This document shows positions 5,797 through 26,786 of a stretch of 33,339 nucleotides of DNA, piece by piece. The stretch lies in IMG/VR virus record IMGVR_UViG_2671180294_000014. One strand, given 5' to 3'. The notes beneath the pieces are model-generated. The model saw only the letters and a list, made by a program, of their open reading frames with translations, did not search any database and was not told the origin of the DNA. The stretch is from a virus. Taxonomy: Duplodnaviria; Heunggongvirae; Uroviricota; Caudoviricetes. The translations under genes were made by a program, and so were the position numbers. Position 1 is the stretch's first letter, and each line of letters opens with the position of its first letter.

Positions 5797-5882
5797 CTCA
5801 ATAAATATGAGTTTATAAGTTAGGCCTCGAGATTTTGTAGAAAGGGATGTATACTGAGTATCGTATAGATTTGGAGTGAGTG

Positions 5883-6905
5883 ATGACTGTAAAGGTGATA
5901 GACCTTTTTTGTGGTGCTGGCGGATTAACTCATGGTTTGCAGCTTGCGGGGCTTGATGTCGTTGCAGGCATTGACCTTGAGGGGGAATGTAGGTTTCCCT
6001 ATGAAAGAAACAATAAATCTAAGTTTATTGAGCAAGATATCGCTAAAGTAACAAAAGAGGAACTGCTGAGGCTTTATGGTGATGCGTCTGTAAAAGTATT
6101 GGCAGGATGCGCACCTTGCCAACCTTTTTCAAAATATACTCAAGGAAAAGATAAGGCTGATGATAAAAAATGGCCTCTTCTTTATGAGTTCGAACGTTTA
6201 ATTCGCGAAGTATCTCCAGAAATCGTAACAATGGAGAACGTTCCTGATGTAACTAAACATAAAGTTTATAATGATTTTTATAATTCATTGTTAAAGTTGG
6301 GCTATTATGTTTGGGCGTCTAAGATTGATTGTGTCGAATATGGAATCCCACAAAACCGTTCCCGTCATGTATTGTTGGCCTCAAAATTGGGGGCGATTGA
6401 GTTAGTAAAACGTGACGATGTTATTTTGAAAACAGTTAGAGATGCAATAGGAAATCTTCCTCCATTAGAAGATGGCCAAACAGATCCAAATGATATATTA
6501 CATAGAGCCAGTAAATTAAATCCGATTAATAAAAAAAGAATTATACACTCTGTTCCTGGTGGTACATGGAAGGACTGGCCGAAAGAGTTGGTTGCCGCTT
6601 GTCATATGAAATCCAGCGGTAAAGGGTATGCTAGTGTATATGGGCGCATGTCTTGGGATAAGCCAAGTCCAACAATTACAACTCTTTGTTATGGTTTCGG
6701 GAATGGGCGTTTTGGACATCCAGAACAGCATAGAGCGATTTCTCTTAGAGAGGCTGCTTTATTGCAAACTTTCCCGATGGATTATATTTTTGTAGAAGAC
6801 AAAAACAAGTTTGTTATAAGAAGTATTGGGAAAATGATAGGTAATGCTGTTCCTGTGGAACTAGGAAAAGCAATTGGGCAATCAATCAAGAACCATTTAG
6901 AATGA
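5883..6905 (+). CDS. DNA (cytosine-5) methyltransferase
   Basis: Canonical C5-MTase motifs are present: I DLFCGAGG, IV GCAPCQPFS, VI TMENVPDV, VIII QNRSRHVLLAS, IX-like RMSWDKPSPTITT, and X GNAVPVELG. GGAG lies 6 nt upstream of ATG 5883. The gene is AT-rich and has no P2 counterpart. Confidence 0.93.
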   Translation: MTVKVIDLFCGAGGLTHGLQLAGLDVVAGIDLEGECRFPYERNNKSKFIEQDIAKVTKEELLRLYGDASVKVLAGCAPCQPFSKYTQGKDKADDKKWPLLYEFERLIREVSPEIVTMENVPDVTKHKVYNDFYNSLLKLGYYVWASKIDCVEYGIPQNRSRHVLLASKLGAIELVKRDDVILKTVRDAIGNLPPLEDGQTDPNDILHRASKLNPINKKRIIHSVPGGTWKDWPKELVAACHMKSSGKGYASVYGRMSWDKPSPTITTLCYGFGNGRFGHPEQHRAISLREAALLQTFPMDYIFVEDKNKFVIRSIGKMIGNAVPVELGKAIGQSIKNHLE

Positions 6906-6911
6906 TAAAAT

Positions 6912-6928
6912 GGCCTGCTTTACAGGCC
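6912..6928. terminator. Stem-loop shared by the converging methyltransferase and HEPN genes (candidate bidirectional terminator)
   Basis: GGCCTG-CTTTA-CAGGCC sits between the two stop codons (6903-6905 and 6935-6937). It has A/T-rich flanks on both sides. Confidence 0.55.
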
Positions 6929-6934
6929 TTATAA

Positions 6935-7615
6935 CTATTGTTCTAAATATTCATTATTATTTATATAGTGCTCTATATTATTCACGATAGCATCAAGATA
7001 GGCGATTACTTCTAATGAAATATTCTCTAAGTCCTGATATGAAACATTTTTTCCAATCTCAGCAAATGATACATTGCCATGAGATAAATCATTACGATGT
7101 TGTTTAACAGTGGCTAATTTTTCACCATGTTTAGTGTGAGTGTAATCGGAATGTGTAGAAAAACCATATATTTTCGATTTTTCTTTGATTTCCTCTCTAT
7201 CAATATTTCCTGAGAATATTTTCTTTTTGTTGAACGTGCCATAAGATATACCGCAAGATATACCTTTGGTAAGGTGATTAACTAAACTTTCAACATTTAC
7301 AGATTCATTTTTTAATCTTTTTAATATTTCTGACCTGAGATTTTTCCTGAGTTTGTCAAATTCTACGTTTCTATCATAAATAGTCTCATGAATAAGGCAG
7401 ATAGCTTCTCTCATTGTTGATTCAATGAGGTTATATAACAGTATATATACTGCTCCCTTTAGAGTTTTTCGTGATTGAGCAGTAATGGAGAACTTATGTT
7501 CTTTATCATCAGCTGATATCAGTTCTGCACCGGCATACTCAATAAATTTCAAAAGATCCAAATAGGCCAAGATCTCTCCTGACCTTTCGTCAAAATCCTC
7601 ACGAAAACGATCCAT
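6935..7615 (-). CDS. Stand-alone HEPN-domain protein (predicted RNase-type effector)
   Basis: The 226-aa protein looks helical. An R-x4-H motif, RNDLSH (residues 174-179, nt 7079-7096), lies near the C-terminus. It resembles the family usually annotated as MAE_28990/MAE_18760 HEPN-like nuclease (from memory). Its ATG lies 1 nt after the upstream gene's stop. Confidence 0.75.
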   Translation of the reverse strand: MDRFREDFDERSGEILAYLDLLKFIEYAGAELISADDKEHKFSITAQSRKTLKGAVYILLYNLIESTMREAICLIHETIYDRNVEFDKLRKNLRSEILKRLKNESVNVESLVNHLTKGISCGISYGTFNKKKIFSGNIDREEIKEKSKIYGFSTHSDYTHTKHGEKLATVKQHRNDLSHGNVSFAEIGKNVSYQDLENISLEVIAYLDAIVNNIEHYINNNEYLEQ

Positions 7616-7616
7616 G

Positions 7617-8759
7617 TTAATCCTCTAATAATTTATCCCGAACATATTCAATTCGTTCAATTACCTTCACGCGACTATTAGCTCCGTCGGAAGTGGTCAA
7701 TCGTTTGAATTCTTCTGAGCTTAGCCAATCTAAGTTCTTGGGAACAAGGTCAGGGACTTCACGTAATGCAAGTGCTGCGCCAACAGCGAGAGATTCGAAT
7801 CTAACTCGAGGTGTAGATTTTGCAGTAATAGTTTTCTTGAATCCTGCTGGGAAATAGTTTTCAACAAAAGATAGAACATTAGCAAACTCTTGTTTCATTG
7901 AGTTTTGTTTAGTTTCGTCTATATCTCGATTTTCTGACATATAGTCATTTAGAAAATCCCGTACGGAATGATCAAAGTTCTTGTACTTATCTACGTAGGC
8001 AAAGAATCTTAATGTAAATTCTAACCGTTCATCTCGTTTTTCTTTAGTCTGAGATAAAGGTGCTAATTCTTTAAATTTAGGTATTGTTGAGCATGGCTTA
8101 ATAACCTGTGTATATAAATTTGTTGAACCAAGTTCTGATCCTTTACGGACTTCCATATCTTTCAATATATCGCTGCCAGAGTTAATACGCTCAAAAAGAT
8201 CTCTACGGGTTTCTTCATTGCATTTAGAACTCAATTCTATAACGCGGACAGGAATTCTCATGAAACGACGTTGACGTGATAATGGTAAATCTTGGAATTT
8301 GAAACCATTAAGGACGTCTAAAGATTTCAGGTCTTGTAAAACTAATTCATTTTGGATAAAAGCGTGTATAGTCCTAACTCGTTGTGAGCCATCAACAATC
8401 TCAATTCGCCCATCTAAATCGGGATCTTCGGAGAGAACATCTGCTATAAATATATATGGTATAGGAAAACCCAAAATCAAAGACTCTATCAATTTTGATT
8501 GTCTTTTTTCACTCCAAACAAAATCCCTTTGATAATCAGGAACAAAGAGTTCGTTAGTATCATCCTCTAATCCGTTATGATACTTATTAACTAATAACTC
8601 AACGGTAAATTCTTTGGTCTCAAAATCCACATCCTTTTGCTCAGCACGAATTTGCTCTTCAGCGTTTTGCTTTATCACCTCTAGCTGAGCAAGCAACTCT
8701 GCTCTTTTCTTGGCATTATCTTCATTTTCTAGTTGAGATTTTAAATCAATAATGTCCAT
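7617..8759 (-). CDS. DUF262 (ParB/Srx-like NTPase domain) protein with an N-terminal coiled coil and no fused nuclease domain
   Basis: DUF262 hallmarks are present: VPDYQRDFVWS and IVDGSQR (nt 8379-8393). ATG at 8759 is preceded by AAGGGA; the ORF-track start at 8777 is a TTG extension. I see no DUF1524/His-Me motif in the C-terminal half. Confidence 0.8.
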   Translation of the reverse strand: MDIIDLKSQLENEDNAKKRAELLAQLEVIKQNAEEQIRAEQKDVDFETKEFTVELLVNKYHNGLEDDTNELFVPDYQRDFVWSEKRQSKLIESLILGFPIPYIFIADVLSEDPDLDGRIEIVDGSQRVRTIHAFIQNELVLQDLKSLDVLNGFKFQDLPLSRQRRFMRIPVRVIELSSKCNEETRRDLFERINSGSDILKDMEVRKGSELGSTNLYTQVIKPCSTIPKFKELAPLSQTKEKRDERLEFTLRFFAYVDKYKNFDHSVRDFLNDYMSENRDIDETKQNSMKQEFANVLSFVENYFPAGFKKTITAKSTPRVRFESLAVGAALALREVPDLVPKNLDWLSSEEFKRLTTSDGANSRVKVIERIEYVRDKLLED

Positions 8760-8944
8760 GTCTAGTTCCCTTAACAAGTGTTAAAAATTGAAGCGGATAG
8801 CATACCGCATAGATCATGAAAAATGCCATCATGTGCATGGATTTGCATGCGTCAGAAGTCGCTTTTATTGTTAGTTATCACTAGCGCTGGCGTGCTCTTG
8901 GAGTGTTCATGCAACTGCATTAAAACCGCCCCATGAAGCGGGCG

Positions 8945-20802: not shown

Positions 20803-23121
20803 ATGAGCACAAAATTCAGAACCGTTATCACCACTGCCGGTGCAGCAAAGCTGGCAGCGGCAACCGCACCGGGAGGGCGGAAGGTCAACATTACCACGAT
20901 GGCCGTCGGGGATGGCGGTGGTAAATTGCCTGTCCCGGATGCCGGACAGACCGGGCTTATCCACGAAGTCTGGCGACATACGCTGAACAAAATCAGCCAG
21001 GACAAACGAAACAGTAATTATATTATCGCAGAGCTGGTTATTCCGCCGGAGGTGGGCGGTTTCTGGATGCGTGAGCTTGGCCTGTACGATGATGCGGGAA
21101 CGTTAATTGCCGTGGCGAACATGGCCGAAAGTTATAAGCCAGCTCTTGCCGAAGGCTCAGGGCGTTCGCAGACCTGTCGCATGGTCATCATCGTCAGCAG
21201 TGTGGCCTCGGTGGAGCTGACCATTGACACCACAACGGTGATGGCGACACAGGATTACGTTGATGACAAAATTGCAGAGCACGAACAGTCACGACGTCAC
21301 CCGGACGCCTCGCTGACCGCAAAAGGTTTTACTCAGTTAAGCAGTGCGACCAACAGCACGTCTGAAACACTGGCCGCAACGCCGAAAGCGGTAAAGGCCG
21401 CCTATGACCTTGCTAACGGGAAATATACCGCACAGGACGCTACCACAGCTCGAAAAGGTCTTGTCCAGCTCAGTAGTGCCACCAACAGCACGTCTGAAAC
21501 GCTTGCGGCAACGCCAAAGGCGGTTAAGACAGCGTATGACCTTGCTAACGGGAAATACACTGCACAGGACGCCACTACAGCGCGAAAAGGTCTTGTCCAG
21601 CTCAGTAGCGCCACCAACAGCGATTCTGAAACGCTTGCGGCAACACCAAAGGCGGTTAAGACAGCGTATGACCTTGCTAACGGGAAATACACTGCACAGG
21701 ATGCCACCACAGCGCGAAAAGGTCTTGTCCAGCTAAGTAGTGCCATCAACAGCGATTCTGAAACGCTGGCCGCAACGCCAAAAGCAGTGAAGTCTGCCTA
21801 TGACAATGCTGAAAAACGTCTTCAGAAAGATCAGAACGGTGCGGATATTCCGGGAAAGGATACCTTCACGAAAAATATCGGTGCCTGTCGTGCTTATAGC
21901 GGCGCTTTGAGCACTGAAGCCGGAAACTGGACAACCGCTCAGTTTATTGAATGGCTGGATTCCCGTGGTGCATTTAATCATCCGTACTGGATGTGCAAAG
22001 GCTCCTGGTCATATGCAAATAACAAAATCATTACGGATACCGGATGTGGTGATATCCACCTGGCTGGTTGTGTCGTCGAGGTCATGGGAACTAAATCTGC
22101 AATCACTATCCGAGTGACCACGCCAACAACATCAAGCGGTGGCGGTACAACCAGCGCGCAATTCACTTACATAAATCATGGGGACGGCTACTCCCCCGGC
22201 TGGCGTCGTGACTGGAATCGTCAGGGCGACTCAATGACCGGAACGATTAATCAGGATGGCGGAAGCCAGAATGCCTATATGTCTACGGCCTTATGTTCAG
22301 GCACCAGAGGCGGCAAAAAATATCTCAGAAAGTTTCGTGGTGGAGAAGGAGATACTATCTGGCATGAAACAGTTCAGGGCGGGGTAATTCGCTGGGCGAC
22401 AGGAAACAATGACGCTCAGGAAGAATTATCACTCAGCTCCGCTTATGGTCTCCGTTCAAGAGGTGAAATTACATCACTCAGTGCTAATGGTCTGCGCATT
22501 GCTTATGGCAATTATGGATTCTTTATCAGGAATGATGGCGGCAGCACATATTTAATGCTGACGGCCTCTGGCGATAAATTTGGGACATGGAACGGCTTAA
22601 GACCGCTGACTATCAATAACGCCAATGGCGGAGTGTCAATGGGGCATGGCCTGAGTGTTACAGGTGATATTGTCTCAAGTACCAAAGTACGTGCCGGTAG
22701 CGGGAAAAAGTTCACGGTCAGCAGCAGCAATACATCCACGAAGGAAGCCGCATTCAATTTGTGGGGAAACTCAAGTCGTCCTGTGGTGGCTGAATTAGGT
22801 GATGATGCAGGCTGGCATTTTTACAGTCAGAGAAATACAGATAACAGCATCACTTTTGCTGTTAACGGGCAGGTATCACCATCTAACTATGGCAACTTTG
22901 ATTCACGCTATGTCCGGGATATCCGGCTTGGTGGTGCTGCCACATACAAACCTGCGAACAATGGTATGACATGGACACATCAGGCACCGTCCGGGTGTGT
23001 ATATTCCGGCATTATTGTTCAGGATACCGGCTCAAACTCTGCCGATAACATTGGTGGCGTATATTACAGACCGGTGCAGAAATACATTAACGGGACTTGG
23101 TATAACGTGGCACAGGTATAA
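20803..23121 (+). CDS. H: Tail fibre protein H (mosaic: P2-like N-terminus, expanded repeat, divergent distal region)
   Basis: The N-terminal ~170 aa and the last ~20 aa (…PVQKYINGTWYNVAQV) are P2 gpH-like. The protein is 772 aa versus 669 aa in P2 as I recall. The middle and distal part differs from P2. Confidence 0.93.
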   Translation: MSTKFRTVITTAGAAKLAAATAPGGRKVNITTMAVGDGGGKLPVPDAGQTGLIHEVWRHTLNKISQDKRNSNYIIAELVIPPEVGGFWMRELGLYDDAGTLIAVANMAESYKPALAEGSGRSQTCRMVIIVSSVASVELTIDTTTVMATQDYVDDKIAEHEQSRRHPDASLTAKGFTQLSSATNSTSETLAATPKAVKAAYDLANGKYTAQDATTARKGLVQLSSATNSTSETLAATPKAVKTAYDLANGKYTAQDATTARKGLVQLSSATNSDSETLAATPKAVKTAYDLANGKYTAQDATTARKGLVQLSSAINSDSETLAATPKAVKSAYDNAEKRLQKDQNGADIPGKDTFTKNIGACRAYSGALSTEAGNWTTAQFIEWLDSRGAFNHPYWMCKGSWSYANNKIITDTGCGDIHLAGCVVEVMGTKSAITIRVTTPTTSSGGGTTSAQFTYINHGDGYSPGWRRDWNRQGDSMTGTINQDGGSQNAYMSTALCSGTRGGKKYLRKFRGGEGDTIWHETVQGGVIRWATGNNDAQEELSLSSAYGLRSRGEITSLSANGLRIAYGNYGFFIRNDGGSTYLMLTASGDKFGTWNGLRPLTINNANGGVSMGHGLSVTGDIVSSTKVRAGSGKKFTVSSSNTSTKEAAFNLWGNSSRPVVAELGDDAGWHFYSQRNTDNSITFAVNGQVSPSNYGNFDSRYVRDIRLGGAATYKPANNGMTWTHQAPSGCVYSGIIVQDTGSNSADNIGGVYYRPVQKYINGTWYNVAQV
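21321..21806 (+). repeat. In-frame 132-nt (44-aa) tandem repeat inside H, about 3.7 copies
   Basis: Unit starts (aaaagg) are at 21321, 21453, 21585 and 21717. The peptide unit is KG[FL].QLSSATNS.SETLAATPKAVK.AYDLANGKYTAQDATTAR. Copies differ by a few substitutions. Confidence 0.9.
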
Positions 23122-23124
23122 TTT

Positions 23125-23652
23125 ATGCAGCATTTGATAAATATAACGGCAGGTAATCCAAAAACGGTTGAACAATATCAATTGACAAAGGACTTTGATG
23201 TTGTCTGGTTTTTTTCAGAAGATGGTAAGAACTGGTACGAAGAACAAAAGTATTTTGCTGATGACACGATAAAAATAGCGTACGACAAAGATAATATTAT
23301 CCGCTATGTGGAAAAGGATGTGACAGCTATCAGACCGGATGGATTAAGTGTTGTTGAAGTGCCGGATATTACTGCTAACCGACGGGCGGACATTTCAGGG
23401 AACTGGATGTTTAAGGACTGTACAGTGATTAAACGAATTTATACGGCAGAGGAATTGCAGCAGCAGGCAGAAAATCGGAAAGCCAGACTTCTTGCAGATG
23501 CTGAATCCGTGATTTTGCCGCTGGAGCGCGCTGTCAGGCTGAATATGGCAACAGATGAGGAGCGCAGTCGACTGGAGGCATGGGAACGCTACAGTGTTCT
23601 GGTCAGTCGTGTGGATCCTGCAAATCCTGAATGGCCGGAAATGCCGCAATAA
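23125..23652 (+). CDS. G: Tail fibre assembly chaperone G
   Basis: 175 aa. The C-terminal half matches P2 gpG (…[34 protein letters not shown]), while the N-terminal half is divergent. Confidence 0.93.
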
Positions 23653-23733
23653 GTTGTATGAGCTCTGGTGTGAGCTTACATATCTATGGCACAGAGTAAA
23701 GCCTAATCTGAGAGTCCGCTCTGTGCCAGAAGT

Positions 23734-23762
23734 AGACGCACAAGGTGGGCGTGTCTTTTTCT
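23734..23762 (+). terminator. Candidate rho-independent terminator after the V-G operon
   Basis: AGACGC (23734-23739) pairs with GTGTCT (23751-23756, one G-U pair) and is followed by a T-run ending near 23762. The 11-nt loop makes this a moderate call. Confidence 0.45.
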
Positions 23763-23766
23763 TAAG

Positions 23767-25185
23767 CTACATCGGGCTCTTATATGGGGAATGAGAGTTT
23801 TTGAAACGCGGTTCTTCATGCTTCGGACTGTAAATTCTTGCATGATTATCTATCACAACTTTACTTCCAAGAATATCTCGAGCTTCTCCTAACGACCACA
23901 CAGTAGAAAGATCATTAGTCAAATTTCGATAGAGAGCACGAAACCCCTTGGGTTTTTTAAGATCATATAAGAAATCAGGAACTTTAACTTTAAAATTAAA
24001 GGTCGGTAGTTTCGGAAGGGAATTAATAGCCGCAACAGTATTGTATACATGTACAAGCTTAGTTACAGGTACACCTTGTCTAGTCTTGAGCCCATACTTA
24101 GTTCGAATATAATCTGATTCTTTCGATACTTCAGTAAGCAATGCTCTTACTGACTTATTAGCTTGAGGCAATTCATTTTCATCAAACAAGCGCTTTATTT
24201 CTCGCATTTTCTCACGGGCCCTTACAAATTCGTTGTTGTCCCTTATGTTATAAGCAGCTTCAACAATACAACTTGGATCACCAGTTTCTTTTGCGAGCCA
24301 TGCCGAAAATAAAGGAAGCGAAGTTGCTGTTGCTACAGCTTTACCACCAGAATGAATATCAATGAGATCATGACTTAACGAAGTGGAAAAGTTTTCTACA
24401 ATATGTTTAGCATAGTCAAAACCATACTGACAGTTTTGGCTTAAATATGTCTGTTGATACGCCTGACGTAATGGATATAAAAAAGTATCTGCTTGAAGGT
24501 ACTTAGCTGTGAGAGAATAAAATACTGCCCGATTAGCCAGCCATACAAGCGAAGCCACGAATGCTTTGATTGCATCTGATGCTTCACCAGCAGATGTGCC
24601 ATCCCCCCATTTTGCTCCGGGAACTTTGTACCCCTTGCGAATAGGGTTGCCAAATCGATCGAGAAGTTCAACATCGCCATTTGTTCTATTACCAGACTCA
24701 GCAGCATCACGCAGTTCTGAAAAAATGGCAGCAGCAATGTTACCATATTTTTCAAACTCCTTACCTCCATCAGATAAGTTCTTCAGTGTTAGATGATAAA
24801 CACTTGAACTAATGTCCCATGTACATATGATATGTGTCTGAAGAAGTTCAATTAGTTTTTTAAAATCGTCATTAACAAATGTTCCACCACGAATTTTAGG
24901 TTTCAATGCATCAGATATTTTTTTTGCTTCACTTTCAATTTCATCCAACCCATATTGTGCTTTATCAAGAAATAATATCTCTCTGAAACTTGAAATCCTA
25001 CTCCCACGGTACTCTGGAATATAATCATCAACCGCGATAACGTGATCATAGAACAAAATAGACTGTATATAGTTCTCAAATGCTATTATGTCTGTATCTA
25101 CTGAGTCCTTCGATCTTGTTTTTACTTTCCCCTCGATTCTTTGGACTGCAGTTAGAGTTGAATTATCAATCAGTGCGTATGTCAT
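23767..25185 (-). CDS. Hypothetical 472-aa protein with no recognisable domain (cargo of the Z/fun hotspot)
   Basis: It is a long uninterrupted AT-rich ORF with ATG at 25185 and an AAGGAA SD 6 nt upstream. It lies opposite to both flanking late operons and has no P2 counterpart. I could not find nucleotide-binding, nuclease, TM or HTH motifs by eye. Confidence 0.8.
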   Translation of the reverse strand: MTYALIDNSTLTAVQRIEGKVKTRSKDSVDTDIIAFENYIQSILFYDHVIAVDDYIPEYRGSRISSFREILFLDKAQYGLDEIESEAKKISDALKPKIRGGTFVNDDFKKLIELLQTHIICTWDISSSVYHLTLKNLSDGGKEFEKYGNIAAAIFSELRDAAESGNRTNGDVELLDRFGNPIRKGYKVPGAKWGDGTSAGEASDAIKAFVASLVWLANRAVFYSLTAKYLQADTFLYPLRQAYQQTYLSQNCQYGFDYAKHIVENFSTSLSHDLIDIHSGGKAVATATSLPLFSAWLAKETGDPSCIVEAAYNIRDNNEFVRAREKMREIKRLFDENELPQANKSVRALLTEVSKESDYIRTKYGLKTRQGVPVTKLVHVYNTVAAINSLPKLPTFNFKVKVPDFLYDLKKPKGFRALYRNLTNDLSTVWSLGEARDILGSKVVIDNHARIYSPKHEEPRFKNSHSPYKSPM

Positions 25186-25226
25186 TTACATTCCTTAAAT
25201 AAAAAACATTAATGGTTGCTCCAAAA

Positions 25227-25256
25227 ATACTAGCAACCTTATTTCAGTGAAGTCAA
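25227..25256 (-). promoter_or_regulatory. Candidate sigma-70 promoter of the 472-aa gene
   Basis: On the minus strand, TTGACT (25256-25251) is followed by an 18-nt spacer and then TAGTAT (25232-25227). The -10 lies in the loop of the inverted repeat GGTTGCT/AGCAACC (25214-25220 / 25232-25238). Confidence 0.4.
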
Positions 25257-25471
25257 TTTTTTAACATTAATCATTTACACACGCTTGAAAAGTGATCGCT
25301 GAAAATGGCATTTACTACATTATCAAAGTTCCCATCGAAGATAATCGAAATTTTTCCCGGTAGCAGATATCGTGAGATTTAACGCTTTTCGCTCATAGCA
25401 GGCTGTCAGATTTGATAGCGTTTGGGCTATGTAAACTGTCAGTCGGAAAATGAGTGTGTACAAATCAGGAC

Positions 25472-25499
25472 ATGCGGGCGAATTGCCCGCATTTTCTTT
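25472..25499 (+). terminator. Strong rho-independent terminator upstream of the FI late promoter
   Basis: ATGCGGGC-GAATT-GCCCGCAT is followed by TTTTCTTTAT. It insulates the FI operon from upstream plus-strand transcription. Confidence 0.75.
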
Positions 25500-25595
25500 A
25501 TCTGTTGTTTCATCCACTGACCAGCCAGGTCAAATAGCGTCTCATGCACTGCCCAACAGAAAATAGTTGCACCCATTAACCACGGAGTTAAACGG
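25500..25595 (+). promoter_or_regulatory. Late promoter region P_F (Ogr-dependent), position by synteny
   Basis: This interval lies between the terminator and FI. TGTTGT at 25503-25508 sits about 55 nt upstream of an A/T-rich -10-like stretch (AAAATAGT, 25559-25566). The match to TGT-N12-ACA is imperfect. Confidence 0.45.
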
Positions 25596-26786
25596 ATGAG
25601 TGACTATCATCACGGCGTGCAGGTGCTGGAGATTAACGACGGCACCCGCGTCATTTCCACCGTATCCACTGCCATTGTCGGCATGGTCTGCACGGCCAGC
25701 GATGCGGATGCGGAAACCTTCCCCCTCAATAAACCGGTGCTGATTACCAATGTGCAGAGCGCAATTGCAAAGGCCGGTAAAAAAGGCACGCTGGCGGCAT
25801 CGTTGCAGGCCATCGCCGACCAGTCAAAACCGGTCACCGTTGTCGTGCGTGTGGAAGACGGCACCGGCGACGACGAGGAAACGAAACTCGCGCAGACCGT
25901 TTCCAATATCATCGGCACCACCGACGAAAACGGTCAGTACACCGGACTGAAAGCCCTGCTGGCGGCGGAGTCGGTAACCGGTGTTAAACCGCGTATTCTC
26001 GGCGTGCCGGGACTGGACACCAAAGAGGTGGCTGTTGCACTGGCATCAGTCTGTCAGAAGCTGCGCGCTTTCGGGTATATCAGCGCATGGGGCTGTAAGA
26101 CCGTTTCCGAGGTGAAAGCCTACCGTCAGAATTTCAGCCAGCGTGAGCTGATGGTCATCTGGCCGGATTTCCTCGCATGGGATACGGTCGCCAGTACCAC
26201 CGCCACCGCGTATGCCACCGCCCGTGCGCTGGGTCTGCGCGCTAAAATCGACCAGGAGCAGGGCTGGCATAAAACGCTGTCCAACGTCGGGGTGAACGGT
26301 GTTACCGGCATCAGCGCGTCCGTATTCTGGGATTTGCAGGAGTCCGGCACCGATGCTGACCTGCTTAACGAGTCAGGCGTCACAACGCTGATTCGCCGTG
26401 ACGGTTTCCGCTTCTGGGGTAACCGTACCTGCTCTGATGACCCGCTGTTCCTCTTTGAAAACTACACCCGCACCGCGCAGGTGCTGGCCGACACGATGGC
26501 TGAGGCGCACATGTGGGCGGTGGACAAGCCCATCACCGCAACGCTGATTCGCGACATCGTTGACGGCATCAATGCCAAATTCCGTGAGCTGAAAACAAAC
26601 GGCTATATCGTGGATGCGACCTGCTGGTTCAGCGAAGAATCCAACGATGCGGAAACCCTCAAGGCCGGAAAACTGTATATCGACTACGACTATACCCCGG
26701 TGCCTCCTCTTGAAAACCTGACCCTGCGCCAGCGTATTACCGATAAATACCTGGCAAATCTGGTCACCTCGGTTAACAGCAATTAA
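25596..26786 (+). CDS. FI: Contractile tail sheath protein
   Basis: 396 aa. It matches P2 gpFI by recall. Confidence 0.96.
   Translation: MSDYHHGVQVLEINDGTRVISTVSTAIVGMVCTASDADAETFPLNKPVLITNVQSAIAKAGKKGTLAASLQAIADQSKPVTVVVRVEDGTGDDEETKLAQTVSNIIGTTDENGQYTGLKALLAAESVTGVKPRILGVPGLDTKEVAVALASVCQKLRAFGYISAWGCKTVSEVKAYRQNFSQRELMVIWPDFLAWDTVASTTATAYATARALGLRAKIDQEQGWHKTLSNVGVNGVTGISASVFWDLQESGTDADLLNESGVTTLIRRDGFRFWGNRTCSDDPLFLFENYTRTAQVLADTMAEAHMWAVDKPITATLIRDIVDGINAKFRELKTNGYIVDATCWFSEESNDAETLKAGKLYIDYDYTPVPPLENLTLRQRITDKYLANLVTSVNSN

Follow-up and report, generated by a model that had tools for sequence, protein, structure and literature searches.

What does the only gene carried between the tail genes G and FI of a P2-like prophage do for its bearer? 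The window analysed here is the whole 33,339-nucleotide (nt) stretch of IMG/VR virus record IMGVR_UViG_2671180294_000014, a complete P2-like (Peduovirus) prophage of Escherichia coli with its integrase gene at 1-1011 and a host cation-efflux gene at the right end. E. coli 89-3156 is identical to the window across the slot between G and FI, and the slot contains one long open reading frame (ORF) for a protein of 472 amino acids (aa). An earlier note, made from the letters of the window, had described this ORF as an orphan in a defence hotspot and as a strong candidate for an undescribed single-protein anti-phage or exclusion system. We found that the gene is real, that it is under purifying selection and that its family occurs in more than ten phyla. 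On balance, it most likely encodes an autonomous enzyme that acts as a single-gene anti-phage or exclusion system. Phage defence hotspots with an exchangeable single gene are well known as a kind, whereas this protein family and its fold are not.

A single cargo gene between G and FI

Both flanking genes lie on the plus strand and the 472-aa ORF lies on the minus strand, as the earlier note described. The features of the slot are as follows.

23125-23652, plus strand: tail-fibre-assembly gene G (Caudo_TAP)
23653-23732, no strand assigned: left conserved border, the 'left inverted repeat' of the P2 Z-region, with a perfect 10-bp hairpin stem (23687-23696 / 23719-23728)
23767-25185, minus strand: 472-aa protein of an uncharacterised family (WP_000220361.1; phrog_13435), the sole long ORF of the slot, ATG start
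25186-25384, minus strand: upstream control region that moves with the gene, containing the Shine-Dalgarno sequence AAGGAA and a sigma-70-like site
25385-25471, no strand assigned: right conserved border, the 'right inverted repeat'
25596-26786, plus strand: sheath gene FI (tail sheath)

The cargo block of about 1.65 kb is AT-rich; its GC content is 0.374, whereas the window as a whole has 0.514 and the late genes on either side have about 0.55-0.60. Conserved P2 backbone makes up the outer ~80 nt on each side of 23653-25471 (23653 to about 23732 and about 25385 to 25471). The borders were compared with the GenBank Z-region records of P2-EC58 and P2-EC53 (AJ512683 and AJ512682), whose cargo is unrelated. 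The left border is 96-97% identical to the annotated left inverted repeat of both records, and the right border is 94-95% identical to their right inverted repeat. The same borders are present in P2 itself, L-413C and fiAA91-ss. A 28-nt imperfect inverted repeat spans the two borders (arm 23705-23732 against 25385-25412, 75% complementary).

Among 5426 complete E. coli genomes, the slot borders were found in 695 and the cargo interior of the window in only 7. Conserved inverted-repeat borders enclose an interior that differs between related prophages, and the cargo of the slot is exchanged among otherwise similar prophages. The possibility that the borders are a genome-wide repeat, similar to enterobacterial repetitive intergenic consensus sequences or miniature inverted-repeat transposable elements (ERIC/MITE-like), was rejected, since they occupy a median of one place per genome and track P2 prophages. 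The slot is the Z/fun hotspot already known from P2-like phages, their second, as the earlier note had recognised; the GenBank Z-region annotations, the literature and the swapping of cargo agree on this. According to GenBank records and the literature, this hotspot serves mixed purposes and also houses receptor-binding modules, invertases and 'lysogenic conversion' ORFs.

A widespread and conserved protein family

The word orphan did not survive the homology searches. In a collection of 5.8 billion proteins, 282 homologous clusters at 90% identity were found; the best 120 of these share 51-100% identity with the window protein, and almost every one has a length of exactly 472-474 aa. Across phyla the identity is 51-90%, and the great majority of the clusters fall within 460-475 aa. 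An exhaustive HMMER scan of 1.84 billion representatives gave 266 families (50%-representatives) at E ≤ 0.001, down to about 21% identity, with members of 455-480 aa and no fusions. The hosts belong to more than ten phyla and include Enterobacterales, Pseudomonas, Vibrio, Acinetobacter, Halomonas, Betaproteobacteria, Desulfobacterota, Nitrospira, Cyanobium, Verrucomicrobia, Chloroflexi, Spirochaetes, Clostridia, Bacteroidota and Armatimonadota. All through the family the N-terminus MTYALIDN is retained, which makes the start of the ORF secure.

These data also bear on whether the ORF could be a decaying remnant or a mis-called frame with no current function. The AT-rich foreign DNA and the presence of the cargo in so few E. 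coli genomes would fit such a view, and one Pantoea symbiont copy looks disrupted. However, the ratio of nonsynonymous to synonymous substitution rates (dN/dS) is 0.13-0.17 against the Lonsdalea, Pantoea and Serratia copies, and the frame is intact and of constant length in hundreds of clusters across phyla. At least 1000 E. coli and Shigella contigs, including some of Shigella sonnei, carry the exact protein sequence, and the AlphaFold model described below is confident. Conservation effectively refutes the idea of a remnant.

Predicted fold and conserved residues

No match to the window protein was found in Pfam (2025), NCBIfam (June 2026) or PADLOC v2, and a set of 81 diverse family members gave noise only. 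In PADLOC-DB v2.0.0, no family matched the window protein at E ≤ 10, and the 81 members gave scattered noise (E ≥ 0.019). The match in PHROGs is the unannotated family phrog_13435. Searches of Protein Data Bank sequences with shallow full-length, deep full-length and N-domain-only profiles returned coiled-coil noise. The window protein has no Walker A motif, transmembrane (TM) segment, lipobox, classic nuclease motif or GGxGT-type motif. The reading by eye in the earlier note, which had listed most of these absences, was therefore correct, and its proposal that the gene is undescribed withstood the comparison with characterised families in these three databases. Searches of the literature by accession, PHROG identifier, locus tags and UniProt identifier found no paper that names the family.

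An AlphaFold model built with a deep alignment was confident (predicted local distance difference test, pLDDT, 80.7; predicted template modelling score, pTM, 0.84). It consists of an N-terminal α/β domain (residues 1-140), long helices including a hairpin at 318-364, and a second mixed α/β region; the loops at 255-281 and 385-410 are of low confidence. The fold has no solved counterpart.

Conservation peaks in the first 66 residues and reaches 90% or more at 13 positions there; these include D7, N8, T10, R16, G19, D32, E37, D47, D53, D54, Y55 and R63. A second conserved patch lies in the helical region (W215, R219, Y223, P238, R240, P291 and R324). The N-domain is acidic, with an isoelectric point (pI) of 5.2; the last 100 residues, at the C-terminus, are basic (pI 9.9) and end in a conserved ...K-x-P-M. 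The variable stretches are 76-90, 253-282, 331-360 and 376-414. A dense cluster of carboxylates at strand ends together with arginines has the look of metal-dependent phosphoesterases and nucleotide-processing enzymes. By this analogy, the invariant carboxylates and arginines tentatively point to metal-dependent phosphoester chemistry.

PIN and HEPN were considered as possible assignments. No PIN family of Pfam matched the 81 members at E ≤ 1, and both profile-sequence and profile-profile comparisons were negative. Comparison by hhalign with a VapC profile gave a probability of 0.17%, although this profile is narrow (at least 73% identity) and the test has limited power; the fetched loci contained no VapC-like ORFs from which a broader VapC profile could be made. 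The HEPN assignment was dropped because the sole Rx4-6H strings occur in the tail at the C-terminus, and the deep alignment shows no conservation of them.

Genomic neighbourhoods

We surveyed about 110 loci of the family and clustered their 557 neighbour ORFs without bias. No neighbour gene family recurs across the loci beyond lineage-specific synteny, which argues that the family works alone. No recurrent small partner gene of the kind found in type II toxin-antitoxin systems was present among the 557 ORFs.

Several loci contain genes of other defence systems or toxin-antitoxin pairs. The neighbours include the PADLOC candidate PDC-S60, an Old-family nuclease in a Pantoea integrative element, HEPN-Toprim_N, a Lamassu-like SMC protein (LmuB-like) and CcdAB/TacA in Pectobacterium, MksBEF in Desulfotalea, and ParDE and CopG in Halomonas. 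Other surroundings are mobile elements, such as insertion sequence (IS) elements in Tenderia. In Serratia the gene is cargo of an integrative and conjugative element (ICE) and is located amid the ICE transfer genes. Viral contigs carry the gene in lambdoid nin-region, serine-integrase and helicase/methylase contexts, and a few plasmids carry it as well. In Vibrio vulnificus, the homolog (69% identical) is an integron cassette of about 2 kb between attC-type repeats (loci L016, 7820-9957, and L017). The repeat copies are at 7839-7903 and 9893-9957 of L016, the array has a periodicity of about 470 bp, and this chromosomal integron array also has acetyltransferase and TacA cassettes. The integron arrangement was found for the V. 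vulnificus homolog only and not for the copy in the window. The earlier note had asked whether the family recurs in the G-FI slots of other prophages. The interior of the slot was found in the seven complete E. coli genomes counted above, and the family recurs in defence islands, an integron array, an ICE and several types of prophage.

Distant members (about 35% identity) in loci L041, L044 and L059 (Pseudomonas) and in L043-L046 and L052 lie directly beside complete Hachiman systems (HamA and HamB, E 8e-276 and 2e-250), or have as neighbours a DUF4365-TPR-PIN protein of 1321 aa and a SEC-C-motif protein of 762 aa. The complete Hachiman systems are those of Pseudomonas loci, and the neighbourhood looks like a Pseudomonas defence islet. 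In Clostridium kluyveri a 38-39% identical homolog is beside a serine integrase. The viral contig of this locus (L122, IMGVR_UViG_2718218017_000001, 58581 bp) is the plasmid NZ_CP018336.1 (58581 bp), and the replicon, which is listed as both, may be a phage-plasmid.

The neighbourhoods allow the main rival explanation to be weighed. The gene could have a non-defence accessory role, in element maintenance or addiction, as an anti- or counter-defence enzyme, or as a lysogenic-conversion factor that alters host physiology. The mixed purposes of the Z/fun hotspot and the loci without defence neighbours would agree with such a role, and the distribution on mobile elements fits any selfish or host-beneficial cargo. 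However, no antitoxin-like partner is adjacent at any locus, and the gene is repeatedly adjacent to bona fide defence systems. The protein is also 472 aa long and strongly conserved across phyla; large size together with cross-phylum conservation is unusual for anti-defence proteins. In published work, integron and hotspot cargo without an assigned function is often defensive, which counts in the same direction. We consider a non-defence role unlikely.

In two diverged lineages (L015 and L097; L018), the family gene adjoins a ThsB-type TIR gene on the same strand, and no canonical ThsA is present in the locus. The three genes, on the same strand as the family gene in each case, match PADLOC ThsB1 (E 2.6e-175) and Pfam TIR_2 and Y4lF.

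L015, 6393-7361: ThsB-type TIR gene
L097, 746-1711: ThsB-type TIR gene
L018, 5187-6131: ThsB-type TIR gene

Two ThsB copies are only about 49% identical, thus the pairing does not represent one copied locus. This raised the possibility of a signal-activated effector similar to ThsA, in which the N-terminal Rossmann-like domain would bind a nucleotide-derived messenger (for example, a TIR product) and switch on a toxic activity, and in which the source of the messenger may be elsewhere. The N-domain is as similar to nucleotide-binding USP/HUP folds as to PIN, and the size of the 472-aa protein is close to that of ThsA. Against it, ThsB was found in only 3 of about 110 loci, from two lineages, and the window has none. 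No SIR2, SLOG or Macro match was found in the 81 members, the GGxGT-type motif is absent from the window protein, and the P2, integron and ICE copies are solitary. An effector of this kind seems improbable. ThsB as an obligate partner was rejected on frequency. We read the adjacency as co-location in defence islands, with a small chance of a functional pairing specific to these lineages; the ThsB genes may be orphans, or they may form an alternative pairing similar to Thoeris.

Transfer of the cassette

In Lonsdalea, Pantoea and Serratia, the loci have no P2 genes nearby, yet their nucleotide homology to the window exceeds the ORF. Upstream it extends for about 210 nt, as far as 25396-25416, and downstream for 20-95 nt, as far as 23671-23750. 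The gene thus carries its control region along when it moves. In Pantoea sp. Cy-640 (L009), the homology enters the inner parts of both borders of the P2 slot (23671-23728 and 25386-25416), with counterparts at 7769-7800 and 9458-9515 of L009. These border segments are the ones kept by P2 backbones that carry other cargo. The Pantoea locus has an integrase, an Old-like ATPase and a relaxase, and no P2 genes. The junction sequence shared by Pantoea and P2 suggests that cassettes may be exchanged by recombination at these junctions, with no direction implied.

Expression signals of the cargo gene

The earlier note had proposed that the gene has its own ribosome-binding site and promoter and is flanked by terminators. 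The Shine-Dalgarno sequence AAGGAA is indeed present at 25196-25191, 5 nt upstream of the ATG. A sigma-70-like site is also present on the minus strand and is correctly placed (TTGACT at 25256-25251, a spacer of 18 nt, and TG-TAGTAT at 25232-25227), but its -10 element is not conserved in related cassettes. A hairpin, GGTTGCTAGTATTTTTGGAGCAACC, at 25216-25240 on the minus strand overlaps the predicted -10 and is followed by a T-rich stretch and then the Shine-Dalgarno sequence; none of the Lonsdalea, Pantoea and Serratia copies conserves it. A search of the 5' leader for an RNA component or riboregulator gave no Rfam match and no fold signal (z = 0.02).

Two hairpins correspond to the proposed terminators.

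23734-23762, plus strand: possible bidirectional terminator, cargo-borne, an imperfect hairpin followed by UUUUUCUU / TTTTTCTT (minimum-free-energy fold: stem and U-tract)
25472-25502, plus strand: intrinsic-terminator-like hairpin upstream of FI, ATGCGGGCGAATTGCCCGCAT followed by TTTCTTTATC, in conserved P2 backbone

The right one was called by the terminator scanner, with 9 pairs at 25472-25492 followed by a T-run (z = -4.2 for the 126-nt region). The left one is weaker and fell short of the criteria of the scanner. In the Pantoea copy, a perfect stem of 8 bp, GGACGCAC/GTGCGTCC, occupies this position. It is possible that the left hairpin acts as a bidirectional terminator and separates read-through from G from the 3' end of the cargo gene. 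Judging by these sequence features, an insulated and autonomous expression of the cargo gene in the lysogen is plausible.

Proposed function

We infer an anti-phage role, expression in the lysogen and a catalytic chemistry for the 472-aa protein, and the single-gene enzyme favoured above would work as follows. The slot would contain a mobile and self-sufficient one-gene module, in which the ORF is accompanied by a 3' hairpin and by about 200 nt of upstream sequence of its own. A promoter within the module would drive leftward transcription that does not depend on the late operons controlled by Ogr. The product, a member of an undescribed family, would be a soluble enzyme with a mass of about 53 kDa. 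Its active site may combine the acidic N-terminal α/β domain (D7, D32, E37, D47, D53 and D54) with arginines of the helical region (R219, R240 and R324) and carry out metal-dependent phosphoester cleavage or nucleotide processing. A phage-derived trigger or a nucleic-acid substrate may be recognised by the four variable segments (about 76-90, 253-282, 331-360 and 376-414) together with the basic region at the C-terminus. The module would protect the lysogen from other phages, by exclusion or by abortive infection.

Several observations weigh against this proposal. Both the anti-phage activity and the expression in lysogens are deduced from genomic context and sequence. Promoter-like sites are no commoner in the slot than in shuffled sequence (4 found against 5.2 expected). 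Several loci have no obvious defence neighbours, and in Acinetobacter and Nitrospira the gene is a lone insertion among housekeeping genes. The resemblance of the N-domain to PIN appeared only in a weaker model, was equalled by USP/HUP folds and was missing from the top hits of the better model, and the acidic residues do not appear to follow the spacing of the canonical PIN tetrad. A PIN fold is a three-layer α/β/α arrangement whose four acidic residues lie at the ends of β1, in α2, and at the ends of β3 and β4. PADLOC v2 dates from 2023, and a more recent description of the family is possible. Taking both sides together, the term strong candidate used by the earlier note for a single-protein anti-phage or exclusion system is a fair one.

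A broader proposal may be made, to which we give slightly less than an even chance. The protein would be the founding member of an undescribed single-protein defence family, with a new fold and a catalytic centre made of an acidic α/β domain and an arginine-rich helical part. The family would travel as a promoter-bearing 1.7-kb cassette across P2 Z/fun slots, integrons, ICEs and defence islands of more than ten phyla, and in some lineages it might serve as an alternative ThsB-TIR effector.

Other features of the prophage

At 5880-8777 of the window, bounded by gpA and the portal gene, lies the first P2 hotspot, which has a GC content of 0.35-0.38 and contains three genes.

5880-6905, plus strand: C5-cytosine DNA methylase
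6935-7615, minus strand: HEPN_MAE_28990 protein, paired with the GmrSD_N/DUF262 protein
7617-8777, minus strand: GmrSD_N/DUF262 protein, matching PADLOC NsnA (E 2e-54) and PD-T4-2_A (E 3e-35)

From the matches of the DUF262 protein to NsnA and PD-T4-2_A, the prophage already has one recognisable defence module. On the other side of the G-FI slot from FI, the GC content changes within 21800-23450 from about 0.55 to 0.47-0.49 in the distal half of the tail-fibre gene H, and then to 0.37-0.39 in the 5' half of G. The H gene codes for Phage_fiber_2 repeats and a T4 gp34-type trimerisation domain. The receptor-binding module adjoining the cargo slot looks recombinant, which fits reports of tail-fibre gene swapping at the Z/fun hotspot.

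Comparison with known systems

The closest parallels in position are Z/fun of P2 and other lysogenic-conversion ORFs of the Z-region in P2-like coliphages, such as ORF1 of P2-EC58 and P2-EC53, which occupy the same slot within the same inverted-repeat borders. Like the cargo described here, the P2 Z-region ORFs are single AT-rich genes with their own promoter and ribosome-binding site, often on the opposite strand. Z/fun is reported to exclude T5. However, the 472-aa protein has no sequence relationship to these ORFs, is twice their size (about 230 aa), and belongs to a family that extends far beyond P2; the cargo interior matched no phage record in DNA or protein searches. In contrast to PIN ribonucleases such as VapC, it has no antitoxin partner and has 330 further residues in a fold without a known match. 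It resembles ThsA of Thoeris in being a protein of about 470 aa beside a ThsB TIR gene in two lineages where the canonical ThsA is absent, and differs from it in lacking a SIR2, SLOG or Macro domain, and thus the SIR2-SLOG and TM-Macro architectures, and in the absence of ThsB from about 98% of loci. Neither Pfam nor PADLOC gave a ThsA match.

A further likeness is to the single-gene defence cargo of integrons, prophages and satellite hotspots, with which it shares a compact promoter-bearing cassette, a location near known systems and rapid swapping. The ecology is the same as that of cargo in P2 hotspots and sedentary chromosomal integrons (Rousset 2022, PMC9122126; Darracq 2024, preprint 10.1101/2024.07.02.601686; and a 2026 P2/P4 preprint, 10.64898/2026.02.27.708500). 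The difference is that the 472-aa family is absent from the PADLOC v2 models.

If the gene is a defence system, lysogens of E. coli and Shigella, as well as environmental bacteria of many phyla, have in it a compact immune module that consists of one gene, has a new fold and probably brings new enzymology. At only about 1.8 kb, and with its control region included, the native cassette is readily testable. If the gene is not defensive, it still represents a widespread and strongly conserved family without any annotation. The hotspot among the tail genes of P2 also appears to trade ready-to-express cassettes with non-phage elements, and this bears on how hotspot cargo is swapped.

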